DNA from: Oceanidesulfovibrio indonesiensis
GTDB lineage: Bacteria > Desulfobacterota > Desulfovibrionia > Desulfovibrionales > Desulfovibrionaceae
Direction: 5' to 3'
DNA length: 32,000 nt
NCBI RefSeq assembly: GCF_007625075.1
Contig: NZ_QMIE01000002.1
Coordinates: 155,873 to 187,872, forward strand
In this document: positions 2,842-21,891 of the stretch, in pieces
How the letters are laid out: every line of letters begins with the position of its first letter
How positions within the stretch are numbered: position 1 is the stretch's first letter
Notes under the pieces: generated by a model
Seen by the model: only the letters and a program-made list of their open reading frames with translations
Databases searched by the model: none
What the model was told of the DNA's origin: nothing
Program-made: the position numbers and the translations under genes

Positions 2842-4392
2842 ATGTTCGATCTCGCCGTCGCAGGTCTGGAGCACGTGCTCGTTCCGGCCAACCTGCTCTT
2901 CCTGTTCATCGGTGTGTTCGCGGGCATCGTGTTCGGCGCCCTGCCCGGCTTGACCGCGACAATGGGACTCGCGCTGCTGGTGCCTTTCACCTTCACCATG
3001 GCTCCGGCTGCAGGTCTCATAATGCTTGCCGGCATCTATGTCGGCGCCATGTACGGCGACGCGGTCCCCGCCATCCTCATCAACACGCCTGGAACACCGG
3101 CGGCTATTGCAACGAGTTTCGACGGTTTCGCATTAACCCAGAAAGGCATGGCCCAGCACGGCCTGGTGGCCGCGGCCGTGGCTTCTTGTTTCGGCAGCCT
3201 GGTGGCCAACATCGTGCTGCTCACCGCAGCGCCGCCCCTGGCCGAAGCCTCCCTCAAGTTCGGGCCCCCCGAGTACTTCTGGCTCGGCGTATTCGGCCTG
3301 ACGATCATCGCGACCCTGTCCACGGGCTCCGTGCTCAAGGGCTTTCTCGCCGGCGCGCTGGGGCTGCTGCTTTCCACCATCGGCATGGCGCCCATCGGCG
3401 GCGACGTGCGCCTCACCTTCGGATTTCCCGAGATGCAGGCGGGCATCGAGCTCATCGTGGCGCTCATCGGCTTCTTCTGTCTGCCCGAGATTCTGGAAAG
3501 CGTCATCGGCAGGCGTCAGGCCAAATACACGTCCAAGAACGTGAAACCCAACTTTTCGGTTGTCTGGGAAGTCATCCGCGACTTGTTCAAACGGCCGGTG
3601 CTCATGTTCCGCTCCGCGATCATCGGCACGGTCGTCGGCTTCGCTCCGGGCGCAGGCGGCAACATAGCCAGTATGGTCTCATACAACGAAGCGTGTCGAT
3701 GGGACAAGCATCCCGAAGAATTCGGCAAGGGCACCATCAAGGGAGTCGCCGCCAGCGAGGCGGCCAACAGCGCCATGGCGCCCGGTTCTCTGGTGCCGTT
3801 GCTCACGCTGGGCATTCCGGGTTCGCCGCCGGCCGCGGTCATCCTCGGCGCGCTCATGCTCCACGGCATGCGCCCAGGCGGCGAGTTGTTCACCGTGCAC
3901 GGGCAGGTGGTGTACGCCTTCATGATGGCGCTGCTTCTCGCCGCGTTCCTCGTCACCATCATCGGCTCTTTCGGCTCCTTTGTCTTTGCGCGGATCATCA
4001 ACATTCCATCGCGCTTTCTGGCTCCGGTCATCATCTTCATGACCGTGCTCGGCTCCTACGCCATCCGCAACAATATGCTCGACGTCTGGATCATGCTGAT
4101 ATTCGGCGTGGTCGGCTTCGTGTCCAACAAGCTCAAGTTCCACCCGGCGCCCATCGTCCTTGGGTTGATTCTCGGGCCGTTCGTGGAAGAGGGGCTCGTA
4201 CAGTCCATGCTGGCAGGGCGCGCGGCAGGCGGCGTGGTGCAGTACATGGTGTTCCGGCCCATCAGCGGCGTGCTCATCACCCTCTCGGTGCTGTCCGCGC
4301 TGTGGCCCGTGTACGCGGCCTGGAAGCACAAGAGAAAGCAACGCCTTGAAGGCTGCGCCTGCGACATCGAGGAGGGACCGAAGAATGCTTAA
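2842..4392 (+). CDS. tctA: TTT transporter large permease, TctA family
   Basis: 516 aa polytopic; GLTATMGLALLVPFTFTMAPAAGLIMLAGIYVGAMYGDAVPAILINTPGTPAAIATSFDG is characteristic of TctA. Confidence 0.95.
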   Translation: MFDLAVAGLEHVLVPANLLFLFIGVFAGIVFGALPGLTATMGLALLVPFTFTMAPAAGLIMLAGIYVGAMYGDAVPAILINTPGTPAAIATSFDGFALTQKGMAQHGLVAAAVASCFGSLVANIVLLTAAPPLAEASLKFGPPEYFWLGVFGLTIIATLSTGSVLKGFLAGALGLLLSTIGMAPIGGDVRLTFGFPEMQAGIELIVALIGFFCLPEILESVIGRRQAKYTSKNVKPNFSVVWEVIRDLFKRPVLMFRSAIIGTVVGFAPGAGGNIASMVSYNEACRWDKHPEEFGKGTIKGVAASEAANSAMAPGSLVPLLTLGIPGSPPAAVILGALMLHGMRPGGELFTVHGQVVYAFMMALLLAAFLVTIIGSFGSFVFARIINIPSRFLAPVIIFMTVLGSYAIRNNMLDVWIMLIFGVVGFVSNKLKFHPAPIVLGLILGPFVEEGLVQSMLAGRAAGGVVQYMVFRPISGVLITLSVLSALWPVYAAWKHKRKQRLEGCACDIEEGPKNA

Positions 4393-4837
4393 CTCAGACA
4401 TCTTCATCAGCATCTTCTCGCTGATCGTCGCGGCCATCATCTACTTTGCAACACGCGACCTGAGCAAGTTCGGCGGCGTCTTCGTCAACTATTGCCTTAC
4501 CGTGTTCGTGGTCCTGGCTGTGCTCGTGTTCATCAAAGGACTCGTCAAGCCAGAGCGTGTCCGGTTCTTCGCATCGGTGGCAGAGCGGAACAATGTGCTT
4601 GTGGGCTTGGTTATCCTCATCATTTACCTGGCGATCATGCCGTTTGTCGGCTTCTTGCCGTCAAGCTTCCTCTTCTTCACGGTAATGACGCTCTATCTGG
4701 GCGATGAGGGCCTGACCACGCGGAACATCCTCATAAGCGTGGGGCTGGCAGTGGTCGTGGTTACGGTTTTCTACCTCGTGTTCAAACAGGTTCTGATGGT
4801 GCCGCTGCCGAAAGGCTCTCTGTTCGAGGCTGCCTGA
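4385..4837 (+). CDS. tctB: TTT transporter small permease, TctB family
   Basis: 150 aa, four predicted hydrophobic helices; overlaps the tctA stop; position in the tctCAB operon. Confidence 0.85.
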   Translation: MLNSDIFISIFSLIVAAIIYFATRDLSKFGGVFVNYCLTVFVVLAVLVFIKGLVKPERVRFFASVAERNNVLVGLVILIIYLAIMPFVGFLPSSFLFFTVMTLYLGDEGLTTRNILISVGLAVVVVTVFYLVFKQVLMVPLPKGSLFEAA

Positions 4838-5601
4838 TGGGACTCGTCGGTCTGTCGAAACTGCGCGAGGCGGCGGGGCCGGGCAGGGCATTCGGATGCT
4901 TTGCCGTACAGGACCTCGGCTGCATGGAGGCGATCCTCGCCGCCGCGCAGGACCTCGAACTGCCGACGGCGCTGTGCATCGGCCAGTCCTCCTGGACCAG
5001 CCTGGCGCCGCTGGTATCCGCATGTCGCACCGCCGCGAGCAAAGCCCAGGTGCCCGTGGCGGTGCACTTCAATCACGGCAAATCCCTGGGGAGCGTGCTC
5101 GCGGCCATCGACGCGGGCTGCACGTCCGTGATGTATGACGGCTCCGGCCTTGATCTCGAGCAGAACATCCGGAATACCCGCGAATGCGTATTGGTGGCTC
5201 ATGCGCGGGCAGTGGAGATCGAAGGGGAGATAGGCCCCCTCGGGACATTCACCCTGGACGAGGCCAGAGGGTTTGCCGAACGCACTGTGGTGGACTGGCT
5301 GGCCGTGTCCGTTTTCAGGGACTGGTCTTTCGACGAACACTTCATTAAAGAGCTTGCGGCCATCGGTCCGGGGCTGGTGCTCCACGGCGCCAGCAAGCTT
5401 GAGCCGGAAGAGCGCGCCAGGGCCATCCGCGCCGGCGTCGTCAAGATCAATGCACACTCGGAAATCGAGCGGGCCATGGCCTCCGGTTTAGAATATGCTG
5501 CCAATCATGCGCGCGCCTTCGATTCCGACTCTCTGCGCCATGCCTGCGACTGCGTGCGGCAGACCGTGAGCGATCTCATGAGGTCTTACGCACTGCTCTG
5601 A
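4837..5601 (+). CDS. Divergent class II (GatY/KbaY/FBA-like) aldolase-family protein
   Basis: GCTSVMYDGSGLDLEQNIRNTRECVLVAHARAVEIEGEIGPLG and GLVLHGASK follow the class II aldolase layout. ATGA overlap with tctB. Several canonical active-site residues are changed (see findings). Confidence 0.75.
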   Translation: MGLVGLSKLREAAGPGRAFGCFAVQDLGCMEAILAAAQDLELPTALCIGQSSWTSLAPLVSACRTAASKAQVPVAVHFNHGKSLGSVLAAIDAGCTSVMYDGSGLDLEQNIRNTRECVLVAHARAVEIEGEIGPLGTFTLDEARGFAERTVVDWLAVSVFRDWSFDEHFIKELAAIGPGLVLHGASKLEPEERARAIRAGVVKINAHSEIERAMASGLEYAANHARAFDSDSLRHACDCVRQTVSDLMRSYALL

Positions 5602-5716
5602 TTCGTCTTCCCAGCTACTGAACGAGCCGGCGAATCCCGCCGAGACTCCTACATTCCATCCCTCCCACGTTTGCGAAGGGCCGCCGGCAGTGTAACCGGC
5701 CGGCTCGCGCTTGTGT

Positions 5717-5756
5717 CGTAAAGACTGCCCCGCCGGATGCCGCGGCTGTCTTTACG
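5717..5756. repeat. Imperfect inverted repeat CGTAAAGACTGC ... GCTGTCTTTACG, 16-nt loop
   Basis: Arms 5717-5728 and 5745-5756, about 115 nt after the aldolase-like gene; could be a terminator-like stem or an operator. Confidence 0.5.
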
Positions 5757-6353
5757 CGTCAGTTCGCGCAGCGTGGCCGTGCCGGTTGTCTCCTGCCGGC
5801 AACATGGGCGCGAGCATATGACGTCATGAGAGCGAGCATCCTCGTACCCTTCGTGTGAGCGAACCGGATGGCGGGTGTTCCGGGGTCCCGATGTGCTTTG
5901 GGCCGTAACTTCCTGATGACGTTGTATTGTTTGTTTTGTGGGCAGGTGGCGTTCAGTAATCAGTGAAATCGAGAAGTATAGTTTTGTCACAAAAATGTTA
6001 TATGGCCAGTAAAAGAAATGACAAAATATGGAAAACATAACGAGAGGGGAGATTTTGGGTATGGGTGCGCTGAATATAACACGCTGTTTCAAAAAAATAA
6101 AATGCAAATTGAAATTTCCAGGAACGCTTTTTGCTCAGGTGTTGAGTATGGTTTGCCGGTAGTCTTCTGGCGGATAATAATTGGCCGGATTTTTAGTTGA
6201 AAATTCTTTCGACTAAGGCTTGGGCAGGCCAGGTGGGGTTTGGGCGGTTGTCTGCTGTTGGTTGGTTAAAATTACTTCTCAAAATTGAGAATAACAACGG
6301 CGGATTTGTTTCACGATCGTAAACACAGCATCTGTGCAAAGGAGTGGATTACA

Positions 6354-9554: not shown

Positions 9555-9628
9555 CCACAGGCGAAATGTCCATACTGCGGGACCGGCGCCCCGGAAAAGG
9601 AGCGCGGGTTCAGGGGAGAACGGATACA

Positions 9629-10978
9629 ATGAGCTTGCGCGAACTCATGGCCAAGGCAACGCCGTTGCGATCCGGCGACGTGCTGGCCGGCGTGGCCGCG
9701 GCGACGGAAGAGGAGCGGGTGAAGGCTCAGATGCGGCTGGCGGATGTGCCGTTGAAGAGATTTCTCAACGAATGCGTCATCCCGTACGAGGAGGACGAGG
9801 TTACCAGGCTCATCATCGACGAACACGACGCCGAAGCCTTTGCGTCGGTAAGCAGCTTTACCGTAGGCCAACTGCGGGACTGGCTGCTCACGGACCAGGC
9901 GTGCCCCGACACTCTGGAAGCGTTGGCTGCTGGACTCACCCCGGAGATGGTCGCCGCCGTGAGCAAGCTGATGCGTGTGCAGGATCTCATTCTGGTGGCG
10001 TCCAAATGCCGCGTGGTCACGCGGTTTCGGAACACCATCGGGCTGCCGGGGCGCTTCTCCGTGCGTCTGCAGCCCAACCACCCCACGGACGACCTCAAGG
10101 GCATAGCCGCCTCCACCCTGGACGGCCTGTGCTACGGCTGCGGGGACGCCGTCATCGGCATCAACCCGGCCACGGACAACCTGGAGAACATTTCGCGGCT
10201 TCTGTGGATGCTGGACTCCATCATCCAACGGTACGAAATACCCACGCAGAGCTGCGTGCTGACCCACGTGACCACCACGGTGGAGGCCATAGGGCAGGGC
10301 GTGCCCGTGGACTTGTGCTTTCAATCCATTGCCGGCGCGGAGAAGGCCAATTCGAGCTTCGGCATCAACCTGGCCATGCTCCAGGAGGCGTACGAGGCAA
10401 CTCTCTCGCAAAAGCGCGGCACGGTGGGCGAAAACGTCATGTACTTCGAAACGGGGCAAGGCAGCGCGCTTTCGGCCAACGCACATGGCGGCGTGGATCA
10501 GCAGACCCTGGAGGCGCGAGCCTATGCAGTGGCCCGCAAATACAAGCCCCTGCTCGTGAACACGGTAGTGGGCTTCATCGGGCCGGAATACCTGTTCAAC
10601 GGCAAGCAGATCCTGCGCGCCGGGCTGGAGGACCATTTCTGCGGCAAGCTCCTGGGGCTGCCCATGGGCGTGGACGTCTGCTACACCAACCACGCCGAGG
10701 CCGACCAGGACGACATGGACACGCTGCTGACCCTGCTGGGCGCCGCAGGATGCAACTTCGTGATGGGCATTCCCGGAGCCGACGACATCATGCTCAACTA
10801 CCAGTCCACCTCCTTCCACGACGCCGCCTATCTGCGCAAGCTATTGGGATTGAAACCTGCCCCTGAGTTTTCGGAGTGGCTGGAACAGGTCGGTGTGCTC
10901 GATGCGCAAGGAGGGCTGCGGTCCATCGAAGGCGGCAATGCGCTGCTCGCGCTCCCCAGGTATCTGGAAACCACATGA
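9629..10978 (+). CDS. eutB: Ethanolamine ammonia-lyase large subunit
   Basis: LRSGDVLAGVAAATEEERVKAQ, IPTQSCVLTHVTTTVEAI, YFETGQGSALSANAHGG, NTVVGFIGPEYLFNGKQILRAGLEDHFCGKLLGLPMGVDVCYTNHAEADQ; aligns throughout with E. coli EutB as recalled. Confidence 0.96.
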   Translation: MSLRELMAKATPLRSGDVLAGVAAATEEERVKAQMRLADVPLKRFLNECVIPYEEDEVTRLIIDEHDAEAFASVSSFTVGQLRDWLLTDQACPDTLEALAAGLTPEMVAAVSKLMRVQDLILVASKCRVVTRFRNTIGLPGRFSVRLQPNHPTDDLKGIAASTLDGLCYGCGDAVIGINPATDNLENISRLLWMLDSIIQRYEIPTQSCVLTHVTTTVEAIGQGVPVDLCFQSIAGAEKANSSFGINLAMLQEAYEATLSQKRGTVGENVMYFETGQGSALSANAHGGVDQQTLEARAYAVARKYKPLLVNTVVGFIGPEYLFNGKQILRAGLEDHFCGKLLGLPMGVDVCYTNHAEADQDDMDTLLTLLGAAGCNFVMGIPGADDIMLNYQSTSFHDAAYLRKLLGLKPAPEFSEWLEQVGVLDAQGGLRSIEGGNALLALPRYLETT

Positions 10979-11790
10979 CCAAGCCGGCAGAGAACGCCAT
11001 GAAAAAGAAACAGTCACCAGTCACACCGGATGGGTGGAGCGAGCTGAAACAATTCACGGATGCGCGGATAAGCCTGGGCCGATGCGGCTCCAGCCTGCCG
11101 CTCTCCGAGGCCCTTTCGTTCCGGCTGGCTCATGCCCGGGCCAGAGACGCAGTGTGGAGCCCATTCAATGCGGAAGGACTGTCCGCTGATATCGAGGCGC
11201 TGGGGTGTCGCTGCCTGCGTCTTGCAAGCAGCGTGACGGATCGCAGTGAATACCTCACCCGACCGGACAAGGGCCGCCGGCTCGGCGAGGAATCCCGCGC
11301 GCTGCTCGAAAAAGAATCGACGGGCTATGATTTGTGCCTCGTGGTGAGCGACGGGCTATCCTCCCGCGCTATCAACGAGAATGCCGTGCCGTTTCTGGAG
11401 CGCTTTCTGCCACTGACTCGCGCGGCAGGCCTGACCGTGGCTCCAGTCTGCCTGGTGGAAAACGGCAGGGTGGCCATTGCCGACGAGGTAGCGTCAATTC
11501 TGGAAGCCAAGCTTACGGCAATCCTCATTGGCGAGAGGCCAGGCCTGAGCTCGCCCAACTCCATGGGCATTTACATGACCTACGCACCCAGGCAGGGCGC
11601 AACTGACGAAGCTCGCAACTGCATATCCAACGTGCGCCAAGGCGGCATGACCATCGAGGCCGGGGTGCAGAAGCTCGCGTATCTCATGGAAACGGCGTTT
11701 CGGATGCAAACGTCGGGCGTAGCGCTCAAGGATAAAATGTCGCCGGACTACCTGCCGTTCGGCGGATTGGACGCGGCACTGGGTCGGTAG
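10975..11790 (+). CDS. eutC: Ethanolamine ammonia-lyase small subunit
   Basis: LSFRLAHARARDAVWSPFN, YDLCLVVSDGLSSRAINENAVPFL, LIGERPGLSSPNSMGIYMTYAPRQGATDEARNCISNVR; overlaps the eutB stop. Confidence 0.95.
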   Translation: MTKPAENAMKKKQSPVTPDGWSELKQFTDARISLGRCGSSLPLSEALSFRLAHARARDAVWSPFNAEGLSADIEALGCRCLRLASSVTDRSEYLTRPDKGRRLGEESRALLEKESTGYDLCLVVSDGLSSRAINENAVPFLERFLPLTRAAGLTVAPVCLVENGRVAIADEVASILEAKLTAILIGERPGLSSPNSMGIYMTYAPRQGATDEARNCISNVRQGGMTIEAGVQKLAYLMETAFRMQTSGVALKDKMSPDYLPFGGLDAALGR

Positions 11791-15492: not shown

Positions 15493-16140
15493 ATGAGTTC
15501 ACGCCAATTCTTCAAAGAGATGGCCGGGACGCTCGGCCGCGAAGTTCGCAAGGCCAAGGGCGCGATCCGGGAATATGCCGCGGGACCGCACACCATCGGC
15601 ATCGGCAATCGTGAGCTGACCCGCCTCGACTCGCGTCTGGCGTCCATCATATCGGACAAAGGAGTGGAGAATCTCAAAGTCCGGCTCAGACAGGATTCCA
15701 TGCACGTCACTGGTCGGTTCACTGCGCGGGTCGGCGGCGCATTCGATGTGGACCTCGTTCCGGACGGCATTATCTGGGAGGAAGGCAACCACGTGCTGTT
15801 CTTCAGGATCGCCAGACAGGACGTGGTAATGGATGGCAGGGTGATGAACGCCTTGCAGGTTGCGGTGTCCCGCACGTGCAACGCTCTGTTCGGAGACGCC
15901 TTCCTGAACGAGAAACTGGGCGTGGTGGACAAGGACGGTCGCCTGCGCATCCCGCTGGACGGTGAGGATTCCCGGCTGGACGCCATTATCGACTCCATGG
16001 AGTTGCATTCCCTGGAGTGTGTGGACGAGCGTTTGCGCATCACTTTTTCGCCCAGGCTGAAGCAGGCCATGACGCACGCGAAAACCGTATGGCGCTGGTG
16101 GCGGGAGCGTGGAAAGCAGGACGAAACCGGCAACGTTTGA
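15493..16140 (+). CDS. Hypothetical protein, 215 aa, possible LmeA/DUF2993-like lipid-binding fold (weak)
   Basis: Coherent composition and an isolated reading frame; SIISDKGVENLKVRLRQDSMHVTGRFTARVGGAFDVDLVPDG. No confidently recognised family. Confidence 0.6.
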   Translation: MSSRQFFKEMAGTLGREVRKAKGAIREYAAGPHTIGIGNRELTRLDSRLASIISDKGVENLKVRLRQDSMHVTGRFTARVGGAFDVDLVPDGIIWEEGNHVLFFRIARQDVVMDGRVMNALQVAVSRTCNALFGDAFLNEKLGVVDKDGRLRIPLDGEDSRLDAIIDSMELHSLECVDERLRITFSPRLKQAMTHAKTVWRWWRERGKQDETGNV

Positions 16141-16578
16141 TTCCGCATCACTGCGGAAGCCTCCAGGCCGTGCCGCGCCTGGAGCGGTGCCGTCCGGTCC
16201 TCTGCCATGCCGTGCGGGCGGCGACTTACTTGTTGCTGCGCACCGTGATCCACCCCGGAACTGGTATTGTTCGGCACGAGGGCGCCGGCCACGTGCTCAC
16301 GCGCCTTTCATCGTGCAGGCTCTTCGGAGTCGAGGACGTCCTTTGGACTGTAAAGCAAGGACGCAATAATTCTCTCCACAACTCCCGGACTTCGAACGCC
16401 GGAAGGCTGTCGCGACGGCTTTACAGAGCATCGGGGCAGGATTATGAAGAAAAAAACATACCCCGAATACGACCATGCGTGAACTACAGAATTTCAAGGA
16501 CTTGCAGCACGATCTCCCAGCTCTGCCAGCTCGCGGTGCCGGAGGCTGTGAGTCTGCAGACGCCGCCCCCTGCTGAGG

Positions 16579-16603
16579 CCCGAAAACCGAGTCCGGTTTC
16601 GGG
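16579..16603 (+). promoter_or_regulatory. Stem-loop just upstream of hgcA (CCCGAAAACCG-agtc-CGGTTTCGGG)
   Basis: 10-bp stem with a single A bulge and tetraloop, 36 nt before the GTG start; no T-tract. Confidence 0.5.
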
Positions 16604-16639
16604 CTCCACGACAAGCCTGGCTATCGCATCGAGCCCTTT

Positions 16640-17653
16640 GTGGATGGCTTCCACGAGACCGCCGCAGGGCCGGCGCCGAGAGTGCGCATACGGCCGGAAT
16701 CGAGCGCCGTATGGGGAACGATCAAGGCGCGGTGCGGTCTGCGGACCAACTACAAGGTGACGCCCGGCCTGTATTGCGCGGGCTCGCCCGGGCCGGATTC
16801 GCCGGCGCTCGTCACCTGTAATTACAAGCTCACTTTCGACCACCTCCGTTCGAAACTGGATGGCATCGACGCCTGGATCGTGGTCCTGGACACACATGGC
16901 GTCAACGTCTGGTGCGCGGCGGGCAAGGGGCTCTTCGGAACGGACGAGGCCGTGGAGCGGGTGCGCAGCTGCGGCCTGGACCAGGCTGCGCCGAACGCGC
17001 CGCTGGTGTTCCCGCAGATGGGCGCCACCGGCGTGACCGGCCTGGAGGTAGCCAAACGCACCGGCCGGAAGGTTCATTTCGGTCCGCTCCGCGCAGCCGA
17101 CATCCCCCGATATATCGAGAACGGTTTCAAAGCGGACGAGTCCATGCGCCGGGTGACGTTCTCTCTGGCGGAACGCGCCGTATTGGCTCCGGTGGAATTT
17201 CTGCTTCTGGCCAAACCGCTGGCCTTCGTCGCGCTCGCCATTTTCGCGCTTTCGGGGATCGGCCCCGGTTTCTTCTCGTTGAATGGCGCATGGACACGGG
17301 GGCTGGCCGGATTCGGCGCCACGCTGCTGGCGTGCATGGCCGGCGGGGTGGTCGCGCCCATCCTGCTGCCGTGGCTTCCGGGACGTGCGTTCAGCCTCAA
17401 AGGCGGGCTCACCGGCGCGGTCTCGGGGCTGGCGGCCGTGTGGCTGTGGGCCGGAGGATTAGCAAGCGGAACTGCGCTCCTGTTGTGGTCCATGGCGCTG
17501 AGTTCCTATCTGTGCATGAACTTCACCGGTTCCACGCCTTTCACATCGCCGTCCGGCGTGGAAAAGGAGATGCGGCGGTACATGCCGTGGCAGATCGGCG
17601 CGGCCGGGCTGGCGTGCGTGTTGTGGATAGCCGCGGCTTATCTGGAGAGATGA
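16640..17653 (+). CDS. hgcA: Mercury methylation corrinoid protein HgcA
   Basis: N-terminal corrinoid domain with the signature cap-helix motif THGVNVWCAAGKG (Cys92 in this numbering) plus VTPGLYCAGSPGPDSPALVTCNYKLTFDHLRS. C-terminal polytopic membrane domain. 337 aa with GTG start, immediately followed by hgcB. Confidence 0.95.
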   Translation: MDGFHETAAGPAPRVRIRPESSAVWGTIKARCGLRTNYKVTPGLYCAGSPGPDSPALVTCNYKLTFDHLRSKLDGIDAWIVVLDTHGVNVWCAAGKGLFGTDEAVERVRSCGLDQAAPNAPLVFPQMGATGVTGLEVAKRTGRKVHFGPLRAADIPRYIENGFKADESMRRVTFSLAERAVLAPVEFLLLAKPLAFVALAIFALSGIGPGFFSLNGAWTRGLAGFGATLLACMAGGVVAPILLPWLPGRAFSLKGGLTGAVSGLAAVWLWAGGLASGTALLLWSMALSSYLCMNFTGSTPFTSPSGVEKEMRRYMPWQIGAAGLACVLWIAAAYLER

Positions 17654-17940
17654 TGCGAGATTTCAGGCATTATGATGGCGTAGCCACGCTGAACCTGAAC
17701 GAGGACGCCTGCGTGGGCTGCGGATTGTGTCCGCAACTGTGTCCGCACGGCGTACTGGCGATGGACGGGCGCAAAGCGCACATCGTGGACCTGGACGGCT
17801 GCATGGAATGCGGCGCCTGCGCCAGGAACTGCCCGGCGCAGGCATTGTCCGTAAAGCCGGGCGTGGGATGCGCTGCGTACATCATTCAGGTCTGGCTGCG
17901 GGGCACCAGATACGCCGACGCGAAATTTTCCTGCTGCTGA
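17650..17940 (+). CDS. hgcB: Mercury methylation ferredoxin HgcB (2x[4Fe-4S])
   Basis: 96 aa; CVGCGLCPQLCP and the HgcB-type CMECGACARNCP motif; extra Cys74 and terminal Cys95-Cys96. Overlaps the hgcA stop. Confidence 0.95.
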   Translation: MMRDFRHYDGVATLNLNEDACVGCGLCPQLCPHGVLAMDGRKAHIVDLDGCMECGACARNCPAQALSVKPGVGCAAYIIQVWLRGTRYADAKFSCC

Positions 17941-17990
17941 CAGGGGAGCCGTCTGGCAGCCGAAAACGGAAGTGTCTTTGATTTCAATAT

Positions 17991-18034
17991 AAACGCAAGA
18001 GGTTGCGAGTGCATGCTCACAATCCCTTGCGTTT
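17991..18034. terminator. Stem-loop between convergent hgcB and arsC (AAACGCAAG...CTTGCGTTT), flanked by TTTCAATAT direct repeats
   Basis: 9-bp perfect outer stem with further interrupted pairing; lies in the 175-bp convergent intergenic region. Confidence 0.5.
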
Positions 18035-18115
18035 CAATATGCGAATGCGGTGCTGCAATGAAGAGCAGGCGCCGCCTGCCTCTGCGCTGAACGCTCTGCC
18101 GGACCGCCCGCACCG

Positions 18116-18610
18116 TTATTCGGACGTCGCCCGACCTTTGATGTCCGCCGTGTTCCAGATGCTGTTGAGCCGCCCCTTGTTCGGGTCCTTGTACCAGGCG
18201 ACGAAGTCCTTCATGAGCGCCTTGATCTCGTCGCGTATCTCGCGGACCTTGGCGAGTTTTTCCTCGTGAGAGCCCTCAAGGGTTGACGGGTCCGGGAATG
18301 GCATGTGCAGGCGGTGCGTCATGCCCGGGAAGATGGGGCAACTGCCGCCTTCGGAATCGCTGCACACGGTGATTACGGCGCCGTAGGTATGGCCTTTCTT
18401 GAAGAGCTCGAACACGGACTGGGTCTTTTTGTCCGAAAGATCGACGCCTTCCTCCTCCATGGCCTCGACCACGAGCGGATTGATAACCCCGGGCTCGAAG
18501 CCGGCGCTCTCCGCCGTGATCTCGCCATTCGAGAGCAGTTTGACGTACTCTTCGGCCATCTGGCTGCGTGCGCTGTTGTGAACGCAGACGAACAACACGT
18601 CCTTTTTCAT
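18116..18610 (-). CDS. arsC: Arsenate reductase (LMW-PTP-like ArsC family)
   Basis: MKKDVLFVCVHNSARSQMAEEYVKLLSNG; ITVCSDSEGGSCPIFPG; first gene downstream of acr3 in the minus-strand operon. Confidence 0.9.
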   Translation of the reverse strand: MKKDVLFVCVHNSARSQMAEEYVKLLSNGEITAESAGFEPGVINPLVVEAMEEEGVDLSDKKTQSVFELFKKGHTYGAVITVCSDSEGGSCPIFPGMTHRLHMPFPDPSTLEGSHEEKLAKVREIRDEIKALMKDFVAWYKDPNKGRLNSIWNTADIKGRATSE

Positions 18611-18635
18611 GCGAATACTCCGTAAGGTTGGTATG

Positions 18636-19742
18636 TCAGGTGGTTTCCGGGGCGGGTTTGCAGGCCACATGGCACACCCCGGCTGGCGTCTCCACGGCGT
18701 ACGGGAAGAACCGGCGCTTGAAGAACAGCGCCACGTTCACCAGCCCGATGAGCACCGGCACCTCCACGAGCGGACCGATGACCGCGGCGAAGGCCACGCC
18801 GGAATCGATGCCGAAGACCGCGATGGCCACGGCGATGGCCAGTTCGAAGTTGTTCGAAGCCGCCGTGAAGGAGAGCGTGGTGGACTGCTCGTAAGTCGCT
18901 CCTGCCTTCATCGAAAGGAAAAAGGAGATGAGGAACATGACGAGGAAGTAGATGCAGAGCGGCACGGCGATATGCAGCACATCGAAGGGCAGTTCCACCA
19001 CCTTGTCGCCCTTGAGCGAGAACATGACGAGGATGGTGAAGAGCAGGAACACGAGCGTGAGCGGACTAATCTTTGGGATGAAGACCTCTTCGTACCACTG
19101 CTGGCCCTTCACCCTGAGCCCGATGAACCGGGACGCCATGCCGGCGATGAAGGGGATGCCGAGATAGATGAACACGGACTCGGCGATCTGGCCCATGGAG
19201 ATGTCCACAACCACGCCTTCCAGGCCGAACCAGCCGGGCAGCACGGTGATGAAGACCCATGCATACACCGAGAAGAAGAGCACCTGGAATATGGAGTTGA
19301 AGGCCACAAGGCCAGCGCAGTATTCGCAGTCTCCCTTGGCAAGGTCGTTCCACACGATGACCATGGCGATGCAGCGGGCCAGGCCGATGAGGATGAGGCC
19401 CACCATGTACTCGTGCTGGCCGGAGAGGAAGGTGATGGCCAGAAGGAACATCAGCACCGGGCCGATGACCCAGTTCTGCACCAGCGAGAGCCCGAGCACC
19501 TTGGCGTTGCGGAAGACATGGCCGAGTCGCTCGTACTTCACCTTGGCCAGCGGCGGGTACATCATGAGAATGAGCCCGATGGCGATGGGGATGTTCGTGG
19601 CGCCCACCTGGAAAGCGTTTATCACGTCCTGTACGCCTGGGGCGAGATAGCCGATACCCACGCCCACGAACATGGCGAGGAAAATCCAGAGGGTCAGGAA
19701 CCGGTCGAGGAACGAAAGTTTTTTGATGACGTTTTCGGACAT
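18636..19742 (-). CDS. acr3: Arsenite efflux permease, ACR3 family
   Basis: [81 protein letters not shown]. Confidence 0.96.
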
Positions 19743-19762: not shown

Positions 19763-20128
19763 TTAATCACATTTCGCGGCGTCTTTCGTTTCGAAATGGT
19801 GACGAAGTCGCGATTCGTCTCCTCGGGCTTCAGGGAAATCGTGCAACGGCGAACCGGGGCCGGTGAGCATCTCCGCCACGCTGCCCGCCAAGTGGGAGTC
19901 CTGCTCGGCAAGGCGGTAGTACATCCACTTGCCGCCGCGCCGGCCGGCAACGAGTCCGGCATGCCGGAGCGTGGCGAGATGACGGGAGACGGTGGACTGC
20001 GGCATGTCCAGAGCGGCCATGATGTCGCAAACGCACAGCTCCCCGTGAGTCAGGCAGCGCAGAATGCGTAGCCTGGTGGGATCGGCCAGAGCCTTGAAGA
20101 AAAATGCGAGGGTTTCCATGTCGTTCAT
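19763..20128 (-). CDS. arsR: ArsR-family metalloregulator with ELCVCD-type motif
   Basis: [73 protein letters not shown]; start ATG 20128 preferred over the longer ORF. Confidence 0.93.
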
Positions 20129-20256
20129 TATAGTATGCGCCTTCCGGGATGGTTCTCTGGAGCGTCGTGCGCTCAAGATGGGCGTGGCACCTGCCGTGGC
20201 TGCAGATACGTGTCCCGCCCACAAGCGCCCGGAGAAGTAAAGCCGTTTATCGCATG

Positions 20257-20284
20257 ATTGTATCCGCTTATGCGGATTTGTCAA
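20257..20284 (-). promoter_or_regulatory. Predicted sigma70 promoter TTGACA-N16-TACAAT with inverted repeat ATCCGC-N4-GCGGAT in the spacer; candidate ArsR operator
   Basis: Minus strand: -35 at 20284-20279, -10 at 20262-20257, inverted repeat 20262-20277, upstream of arsR. Confidence 0.65.
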
Positions 20285-20332: not shown

Positions 20333-21226
20333 TCAGCCGACAAAATCTACCAGATACTTCAAAGCCGTAAGAATGACGACGGTGGCGAGCATCCACTTGA
20401 GCGCCTGAGCGGGTACGAACTTCTGGAGGCGGGCGCCGCAGTAGGTTCCGGCCAGCCCGCCGATGCCGAAAAGAAGCCCGAGGACCCAGTCCGGCGCTAC
20501 GGAGAGATGCGGATAGAACGGCGCCAGGGCTTGATAGAACGCCACCCCGGCCACGGACGTGGCGAAGGTCGCCATGAGCGTGACGCCGGCGATGGTGTGC
20601 ACCGGAAGACCGATAATGGCCACGAGGAACGGCGCCATGATCGCGCCGCCGCCGATGCCGTAGGTTCCTCCCAAGATTCCCACGACGAGGCTCAGGGCAA
20701 AGACCGTGCGCGGCGAGCAACTGTACTTTTGGCCCTGGTACTCGTACGCGATGCTCCGCATGCACGTCTGCAGGACGTGGACTCGCGCGGACCGCGCTCC
20801 AGTTTCTCCGGCGCTGTGCTGTCCGCGTCGTTCGGCAAGCAGATTGCGCACCATCCGAGCGCCGATGAGCAGCAAGACCAGAGCGGCGAACGCCTTGAAG
20901 GACGCAGCATCCGGCAGCAAGGCAACCCGGATGATTGCCCCCGCGAAAACTCCGGGCAACGTTCCGGCGAGAACGGTCCAGGCCAGGGGCCAGACCATGC
21001 GTCCTTCGCGCACGTACTGGTACACGCCGCCGGGCGTGGCGACCACGTTGAAGAGCTGGTTCGTGGCGCTTACGGAAGGAGCGGTGTAGCCTAGAACAGA
21101 CATCTGGAACGGCAGGAGCAGAAACGCCCCGGACACGCCGCCCATGGACGTGACCAGGGAGATGCCGAATGCGACGGCGACCGGAATCCAGGGCGCGACT
21201 TCGATGCCCGCGGCTGGGAAGTGCAT
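20333..21226 (-). CDS. TauE/SafE-family (putative sulfite/sulfonate) permease
   Basis: 297 aa; VTSMGGVSGAFLLLPFQMSVLGY, SATNQLFNVVATPGGVYQYVREGRM, GILGGTYGIGGGAIMAPFLVAIIGLPVHTIAG. Confidence 0.88.
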   Translation of the reverse strand: MHFPAAGIEVAPWIPVAVAFGISLVTSMGGVSGAFLLLPFQMSVLGYTAPSVSATNQLFNVVATPGGVYQYVREGRMVWPLAWTVLAGTLPGVFAGAIIRVALLPDAASFKAFAALVLLLIGARMVRNLLAERRGQHSAGETGARSARVHVLQTCMRSIAYEYQGQKYSCSPRTVFALSLVVGILGGTYGIGGGAIMAPFLVAIIGLPVHTIAGVTLMATFATSVAGVAFYQALAPFYPHLSVAPDWVLGLLFGIGGLAGTYCGARLQKFVPAQALKWMLATVVILTALKYLVDFVG

Positions 21227-21418: not shown

Positions 21419-21730
21419 TTAACGCCGCTTGGCGTGCAGGACCGTATCCACGCAATGGAAGAAGTTCAGAACGCACGGAAGCTTGAGGCGGTACCACGAC
21501 CATTTGCCGCGGCGCTCGTCTTCCACGATGCCGGCTTTCTTGAGCTGTGAAAGGTGCTTGGACACGGTGGAGATGTCCGCGCCGACAAGCTCGGTGAGGT
21601 CGCAGACGCACCGTTCGCCGCGCGATAACTCGTCCAGAATGAGCAAGCGGGAAGGATGGGCAAGCGCCTTCATGATGCGCGCGCGTTCCTCGAAAAAGGA
21701 TTTATCGGTCCGGGGAGTGAGGTCGAGCAT
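21419..21730 (-). CDS. ArsR-family transcriptional regulator
   Basis: ERARIMKALAHPSRLLILDELSRGERCVCDLTELVGADISTVSKHLSQLKKAGIVEDERRGKWSWYRL. Confidence 0.88.
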   Translation of the reverse strand: MLDLTPRTDKSFFEERARIMKALAHPSRLLILDELSRGERCVCDLTELVGADISTVSKHLSQLKKAGIVEDERRGKWSWYRLKLPCVLNFFHCVDTVLHAKRR

Positions 21731-21891
21731 GGGCATTCCTGGCATCTGTCGAAGGGATGGTTGCAATTTGCGCCAAATGTAAACGCGTGTCAAACGTTCA
21801 GTTCCTTCCGCTCGAGTGTTGAAACTCCGTGCAGCATAACTGCTGCTCGTGGGCAGGATACGGATGGTTGCCACGGACAGTCGGGCTAATG

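Follow-up and report, generated by a model that had tools for sequence, protein, structure and literature searches.

Mercury methylation by HgcA and HgcB has been worked out mainly with the founding pair of Pseudodesulfovibrio mercurii ND132 (DND132_1056/1057), in which mutagenesis identified Cys93 of HgcA and Cys73, Cys94 and Cys95 of HgcB as critical residues. Cys93 is required for methylation and its Co-S bond has been demonstrated spectroscopically, and S-adenosylmethionine is the methyl donor in the work on ND132 HgcAB. Most HgcA proteins have already been described as selenoproteins of a CU (cysteine-selenocysteine) form, with extended lengths of 363-400 amino acids, a conserved pentapeptide PCUGP and selenocysteine machinery present in all 20 species examined (Haft, bioRxiv 2022). 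The reference data of that study were put into the annotation pipeline of NCBI, and HgcA (NF040863, motif CU) appears among the prokaryotic selenoproteins compiled in a 2026 review. Here we analyse a 32-kb stretch of DNA from Oceanidesulfovibrio indonesiensis (the window). It very probably carries a chromosomal hgcAB operon whose HgcA is a selenoprotein of 392 amino acids, with selenocysteine (Sec) inserted at UGA 16574-16576 with the aid of a downstream hairpin. Earlier publications cover the gene family, its functional residues and the selenocysteine extension, and the locus is nothing new in principle. Microbial methylmercury production has no known genetic marker other than hgcAB, so that O. 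indonesiensis, a marine, corrosion-associated sulfate reducer, joins the predicted methylators.

An initial annotation of the window had placed an hgcAB pair at 16640-17940 of the plus strand, and the two open reading frames (ORFs) lie there, one of 337 amino acids from GTG 16640 to 17653 and one of 96 amino acids from ATG 17650 to 17940. In the profile comparison, which had been named beforehand as a test able to refute the assignment, HgcA scored 381.7 bits against the NCBIfam equivalog NF040863 (mercury methylation corrinoid protein; cutoff 275, E = 2.8e-114) and HgcB 119 bits against NF040864 (mercury methylation ferredoxin; cutoff 99, E = 6e-35). Both matches are beyond the curated cutoffs, so that a chance match is excluded for either protein. 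The identification as hgcAB is thus confirmed: the system is already known, its host is a sequenced isolate, and the two-gene layout and domain architecture are those of the ND132 pair. The sole Pfam match of HgcA is CdhD, over residues 35-156, those of HgcB are Fer4 families, and a search of PDB sequences with HgcA returned CFeSP large subunits only, across the corrinoid domain alone. The AlphaFold model of HgcA (mean predicted local distance difference test score 82.7) has long helices at model residues 197-356. Its best fold match, over the whole length, is the published HgcAB model 9a0b_A (E = 5e-23, 48% identity); CFeSP corrinoid domains come next, with a match of about 124 residues. Among the candidates scored, 4866 HgcA homologues were found at E <= 1e-20; the nearest belong to Desulfovibrionaceae and other Desulfobacterota, the next named relative being O. 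marinus (HgcA 78% identical), and metagenome contigs encoding a 96% identical HgcA have the gene order of the window. For comparison, 104 hgcA loci were fetched from genomes and metagenomes (L-numbers below; P-numbers denote HgcA homologues), and in 87 of them a hgcB homologue lies directly 3' of hgcA.

It is at the start of hgcA that the initial annotation fails. The frame that it opened at GTG 16640 runs on upstream through an in-frame TGA to ATG 16475, so that 55 codons had been cut off. Reading downstream from ATG 16475 there are 33 codons, the TGA at 16574-16576 and 21 further codons, a 165-nt extension in total that translates as MRELQNFKDLQHDLPALPARGAGGCESADAAPC-TGA-GPKTESGFGLHDKPGYRIEPF-V..., and the frame is unbroken apart from this TGA down to the stop at 17651-17653. 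The 337-residue coding sequence (16640-17653, plus strand, GTG start), which is also the one in GenBank, is therefore truncated and needs the upstream extension through the selenocysteine codon. The corrected hgcA spans 16475-17653 and consists of 392 codons plus stop, with an ATG start, residue 34 encoded by UGA and probably read as Sec, and the catalytic cysteine at residue 147. Its length falls inside the range reported for extended HgcA, and ATG 16475 is supported as the start by the N-terminal sequence MRELQxFKDLQ, which is kept in the relatives L044, L046 and L001. Gene callers, both in GenBank and in metagenomes, use the short form. In L046 a gene caller left a free-standing ORF of 33 amino acids (1462-1563) directly before hgcA, which corresponds to the N-terminal piece of the selenoprotein cut at the UGA and is a recognisable signature of the mis-annotation. 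The GenBank entry of the 337-residue protein (TVM19312.1, 'hypothetical protein DPQ33_02835') has no WP_ accession and the neighbouring proteins do have one; this missing accession hints that a RefSeq re-annotation of hgcA has already been made. An exact look-up in the protein collection of the 392-residue product, with X at the Sec position, gave no match.

The in-frame TGA lies in a context typical of a Cys-Sec pair. At 16565-16582 the DNA reads APC-UGA-GP, with a single in-frame UGA immediately preceded by a cysteine codon, and the putative Cys33-Sec34 pair (TGC-TGA, 16571-16576, plus strand) forms the middle of PCUGP. The sequence APCUGP and the length of 392 amino acids fit the description by Haft exactly. 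Many HgcA homologues are about 400 amino acids long and carry ...EVCCGSPPGPQSSRHEKPGYRLLDFV..., and the TGA aligns with the second cysteine of the CCG motif in three such proteins of Desulfobacterota (P0010, P0012 and P0036), with identical spacing to the KPGY sequence. These Cys-Cys forms share the N-terminal arm with the window protein, the two-residue motif in it, a dithiol in their case, being equally far from KPGY (CCGSPPGP...EKPGY, compared with CUGPKTES...DKPGY), and are 53-58% identical over the rest of the protein; they differ in having a cysteine where the window has UGA and in lacking a structured segment downstream. The ND132 gene likewise possesses the upstream PCUGP extension, MAPPDVPARDDAPCUGPRPDPRAGVFEKPGYAVEPFV compared with ...ADAAPCUGPKTESGFGLHDKPGYRIEPFV in the window; it belongs to a different genus, and the extension differs on either side of PCUGP.

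Between the UGA and GTG 16640 lie 21 codons (16577-16639, plus strand; GPKTESGFGLHDKPGYRIEPF), none of which is ATG, GTG or TTG. Compared with L046 and with L002 they show seven differences each, all of them third-position and synonymous; the comparison with L001 gives six synonymous changes and one non-synonymous change. A segment that has no start of its own and yet accumulates only synonymous changes towards L046 and L002 is therefore under purifying selection as protein. In 34 of the 104 loci, the in-frame stop nearest upstream of the corrinoid domain directly follows a cysteine codon, and this stop is in every case TGA, never TAA or TAG. Another 28 loci have Cys-Cys at the same site. L061, counted among the 34, lacks an upstream ORF, and its Cys-TGA looks accidental.

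Twelve nucleotides past the UGA starts a hairpin resembling a selenocysteine insertion sequence (SECIS), GAGUCCG-GUUU-CGGGCUC (16589-16606, plus strand), with a stem of 7 bp and an apical loop whose first nucleotide is G and which contains U. The hairpin is kept in seven distinct sequences of Desulfovibrionaceae, where 95.9% of the cells of the aligned stem are paired; sliding the 3' arm by 1-3 columns lowers the paired cells to 8-59%. Two stem pairs have changed on both sides, from G-C to A-U and from A-U to U-G. Other Sec-type lineages have hairpins of their own at the same distance. Over the 42 nt located 3' of the UGA or Cys codon, Sec loci have more structure than Cys loci, the mean z relative to shuffles being -1.41 in the former and 0.05 in the latter (Mann-Whitney p = 4.5e-5, with no correction for phylogeny). 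A scan of the whole window at Rfam gathering thresholds returned no match and is uninformative either way; to our knowledge Rfam holds no bacterial SECIS family. The first SECIS candidate was a different hairpin of 12 bp with a bulged A and the loop AGUC (16577-16605, plus strand), which overlaps the conserved stem and competes with it. Minimum-free-energy folding yields it for the window, L044 and L045, with a shorter version for L005, but the folds predicted for L001-L004 and for L046 are different, while the shorter, 7-bp hairpin is conserved. The 12-bp hairpin is probably not the functional element.

Taking together the alignment with the Cys-Cys proteins, the codons with only synonymous changes, the hairpin and the restriction of the stop to TGA, HgcA of the window is likely a selenoprotein of 392 amino acids. 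Several observations weigh on the other side. The evidence for the hairpin comes from seven distinct but related sequences, its stem is situated inside conserved coding sequence, and the observed covariation was reached by 18 of 500 shuffles; as the sample is small and its members are related, the hairpin gives moderate support. A tRNA scan for selC found no tRNA gene inside the 32-kb window. There is no obvious Shine-Dalgarno sequence before ATG 16475, and a scan for sigma-70-like promoters over 15900-18300 detected none. Truncated ND132 HgcA was active when expressed in Escherichia coli (lysates), hence catalysis in vitro can proceed without the CU arm. Finally, a literature search pairing indonesiensis with hgcA or methylmercury, or Oceanidesulfovibrio with mercury, found nothing relevant.

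Among the alternatives, the one that survives best is that both forms are made: full-length Sec-HgcA as long as selenium and SelB are present, and the short protein from GTG 16640 if decoding of the UGA fails, selenium tuning which form prevails. GTG 16640 is a possible start, in O. marinus an ATG occurs three codons earlier (P0002 begins MEPFVDGF), and the short ND132 form is active. However, no Shine-Dalgarno sequence is evident before GTG 16640 (the sequence there being CGAGCCCTTTGTG), and the position of the first possible start varies among relatives, as would follow if gene callers settle on whichever start codon comes first. We regard the production of both forms as unlikely.

Far less probable is that UGA 16574 is an ordinary stop, HgcA having 337 amino acids from GTG 16640 and the upstream segment being an untranslated relic of an ancestral cysteine-rich N-terminus. 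The annotation of the short form by the GenBank and metagenome gene callers would agree with it, as would the complete coverage of the NF040863 profile (325 positions) by the 337-residue protein and the catalytic activity of the short ND132 HgcA in the E. coli lysates. A relic, however, would not show purely synonymous changes across 21 codons lacking a start, nor would PCUGP and a UGA, to the exclusion of UAA and UAG, persist in 34 loci of several phyla, nor a hairpin with compensatory changes at the spacing of a SECIS. That the pair might be a non-methylating HgcA-like or CFeSP paralogue, either a fused HgcAB-like protein or part of an acetyl-CoA synthase, finds a basis in the homology of the corrinoid domain to CFeSP but is effectively refuted by the profile scores, since the window proteins reach only 176.2 (HgcA) and 54 bits against the HgcAB-like fusion model NF043039 (cutoff 285) and HgcA only 63.1 bits, confined to the corrinoid domain, against the acetyl-CoA synthase gamma/CFeSP model CdhE (cutoff 306), and by the presence of two separate genes, of NVWCAAGK and of a transmembrane domain.

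The remaining features of the selenoprotein HgcA agree with what had been read from the short form. The motif NVWCAAGK, reported by the initial annotation, is found at 16904-16927 (plus strand), with its cysteine encoded by TGC 16913-16915; residues W112, C113 and A115 of this cap-helix motif are invariant across 42 homologues. The cysteine, Cys147 of the corrected protein and Cys92 of the short form, is the predicted cobalt ligand and the counterpart of ND132 Cys93. The membrane domain is likewise borne out: hydropathy gives about five hydrophobic segments between residues 234 and 392, encoded at 17174-17650 (plus strand) and including the invariant stretch NFTGSTPFTSPSGVEKEM. The large subunit of CFeSP (AcsC/CdhE; PDB 2h9a and 4djd) has a homologous corrinoid domain, superimposable over 124 residues with a root-mean-square deviation of about 1.9 Å and 23-25% identity, and differs in being devoid of the membrane domain, of the NVWCAAGK cap-helix cysteine ligand and of the CU arm. 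The HgcAB-like fusion has the corrinoid and ferredoxin domains in common with the pair of the window, but in a single polypeptide.

The second gene, hgcB, occupies 17650-17940 (plus strand) and encodes 96 amino acids from ATG 17650, or 95 from ATG 17653, the start chosen by NCBI. As the initial annotation stated, the hgcA stop and the hgcB start overlap, TGA 17651-17653 sharing nucleotides with both ATG 17650 (ATGA) and ATG 17653 (TGATG). The sequence GGAG at 17644-17647 precedes the first ATG by 2 nt and the second by 5 nt, so that the second is better spaced; a start there gives Cys73, Cys94 and Cys95, in a numbering identical to that of ND132. The 95-residue protein matches exactly WP_144301671.1, already named 'mercury methylation ferredoxin HgcB' at NCBI. 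As for the 337-residue HgcA and for HgcB, exact sequence comparison places a neighbouring TctA permease and the hypothetical protein upstream in O. indonesiensis. Two [4Fe-4S] motifs of the type CX2CX2CX3CP, coinciding with the Fer4 matches, lie within 17710-17835 of the plus strand (CVGCGLCPQLCP at 17710-17745 and CMECGACARNCP at 17800-17835), and in the 96-residue numbering the cysteines are at 21/24/27/31, 51/54/57/61, 74 and 95/96. The extra Cys74 and the terminal Cys-Cys are thus where they had been described. Cys74 (Cys73 in the 95-residue protein) is encoded by TGC at 17869-17871, plus strand; about 6% of HgcB proteins have Sec at residue 73 (Haft, bioRxiv 2022), while the one of the window has Cys. 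The terminal pair (TGCTGC, 17932-17937, plus strand) is followed by TGA and is the counterpart of Cys94/Cys95 in ND132. The correspondence of these cysteines with the important residues of ND132 (Cys93 of HgcA, Cys73, Cys94 and Cys95 of HgcB), which the initial annotation pointed out, is upheld by the literature; only its number Cys92 for HgcA belongs to the truncated model. A scan of 15900-18300 found five terminator-like sites where 2.1 are expected, an unconvincing excess, and none on the plus strand directly 3' of hgcB.

By analogy with the ND132 proteins, the following scheme can be proposed for the pair. HgcA would be composed of the N-terminal Cys33-Sec34 arm (PCUGP), a CFeSP-type corrinoid domain and a five-helix membrane domain, with Sec inserted at UGA 16574-16576 helped by the hairpin at 16589-16606. 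Cys147 of the cap helix would ligate the cobalt from below, as the lower ligand of the corrinoid. HgcB, whose gene would be translationally coupled to hgcA, is predicted to be a ferredoxin with two [4Fe-4S] clusters, an extra cysteine and a C-terminal Cys-Cys pair. According to the ND132 work, the clusters of HgcB would reduce the corrinoid to Co(I), S-adenosylmethionine would methylate the cobalt, and the methyl group would pass to Hg(II) held by the thiolates of HgcB. The N-terminal thiolate/selenolate pair may constitute a soft-metal site capturing Hg(II) or handing it over. Methylation of Hg(II) by O. indonesiensis is accordingly a prediction made from the genes.

A further and more tentative proposal, which we consider rather doubtful, is that the Cys-Sec arm could be the physiological site of Hg(II) acquisition, and that selenium, through UGA decoding, could set the amount of full-length enzyme in O. 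indonesiensis and in other methylators annotated with the short form. If the arm had this function, work on the truncated protein of 337/338 amino acids would have omitted part of the mechanism, and the environmental antagonism between selenium and mercury would have a direct enzymatic component. Irrespective of its function, the common 337-residue model is missing 55 residues including the Cys-Sec pair, in an entry that GenBank still calls 'hypothetical protein', and surveys, primers, trimming of hidden Markov models and expression constructs that start from the short model miss the Cys-Sec extension.

The Cys-UGA arrangement also occurs in other contexts. In nine of the fetched loci (L027, L029, L033, L034 and L077, of Clostridium/Hathewaya, and L020, L057, L064 and L094) it is placed in KAC-U-TPKE or (S/N)C-U-VIE instead of PCUGP; the named members of this set are Clostridium, Hathewaya and Syntrophomonas, i.e. 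Firmicutes. Their N-terminal arms are very short (10-15 residues), and about 17-20 nt past the UGA there is a small hairpin whose loop is rich in purines. PCUGP has been reported as an invariant pentapeptide of 20 proteins, but these contexts show that it is not universal. A possible 'UC' variant, with the cysteine after the UGA, was seen in L026 (6046-6110), which reads ...SSQGTT-TGA-CSVKETQL... and has a Met-initiated ORF upstream; a hairpin of about 8 bp, GGAGACUC-AGUU-GAGUCCUCC, begins there about 14 nt downstream of the UGA.

Upstream of hgcA, at a distance of 335 nt, lies an ORF of 215 amino acids that belongs to no Pfam family (15493-16140, plus strand). It was found solely in the closest relatives (L044 and L045) and not beside hgcA elsewhere; NCBI holds versions of 215 and 206 amino acids. 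Further upstream are a Dabb protein, eutBC, and TRAP and Tct transporters. The genes eutB and eutC (ethanolamine ammonia-lyase; 9566-11790, plus strand) are about 5 kb upstream of hgcA, beside TRAP (DctP/DctM) genes, and the proximity to hgcA of this other corrinoid-dependent enzyme is probably a coincidence. The GC content is even over the window, with no sign of a mobile element.

Downstream, and convergent to hgcAB, an ars operon occupies the minus strand, formed by arsR (19763-20284), acr3 (18636-19742) and an arsC of the low-molecular-weight phosphatase type (18116-18670). Beyond it, on the same strand, lie genes for a TauE/SafE-family exporter (20333-21226) and for a second ArsR-family regulator (21419-21874). 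An arsR-like regulator reportedly governs the transcription of hgcAB in ND132, and a link of hgcAB with an ArsR-like regulator has been published. In L001, a metagenome-assembled genome of Desulfovibrionaceae, the same three ars genes (3894-5881, 74-89% identical) are located immediately 5' of hgcA and share its orientation; the block has therefore been inverted or moved relative to hgcAB. The second ArsR of the window is 76% identical to the ArsR encoded divergently upstream of hgcA in L046, and about 25 other loci have ArsR-family genes a short way 5' of hgcA.

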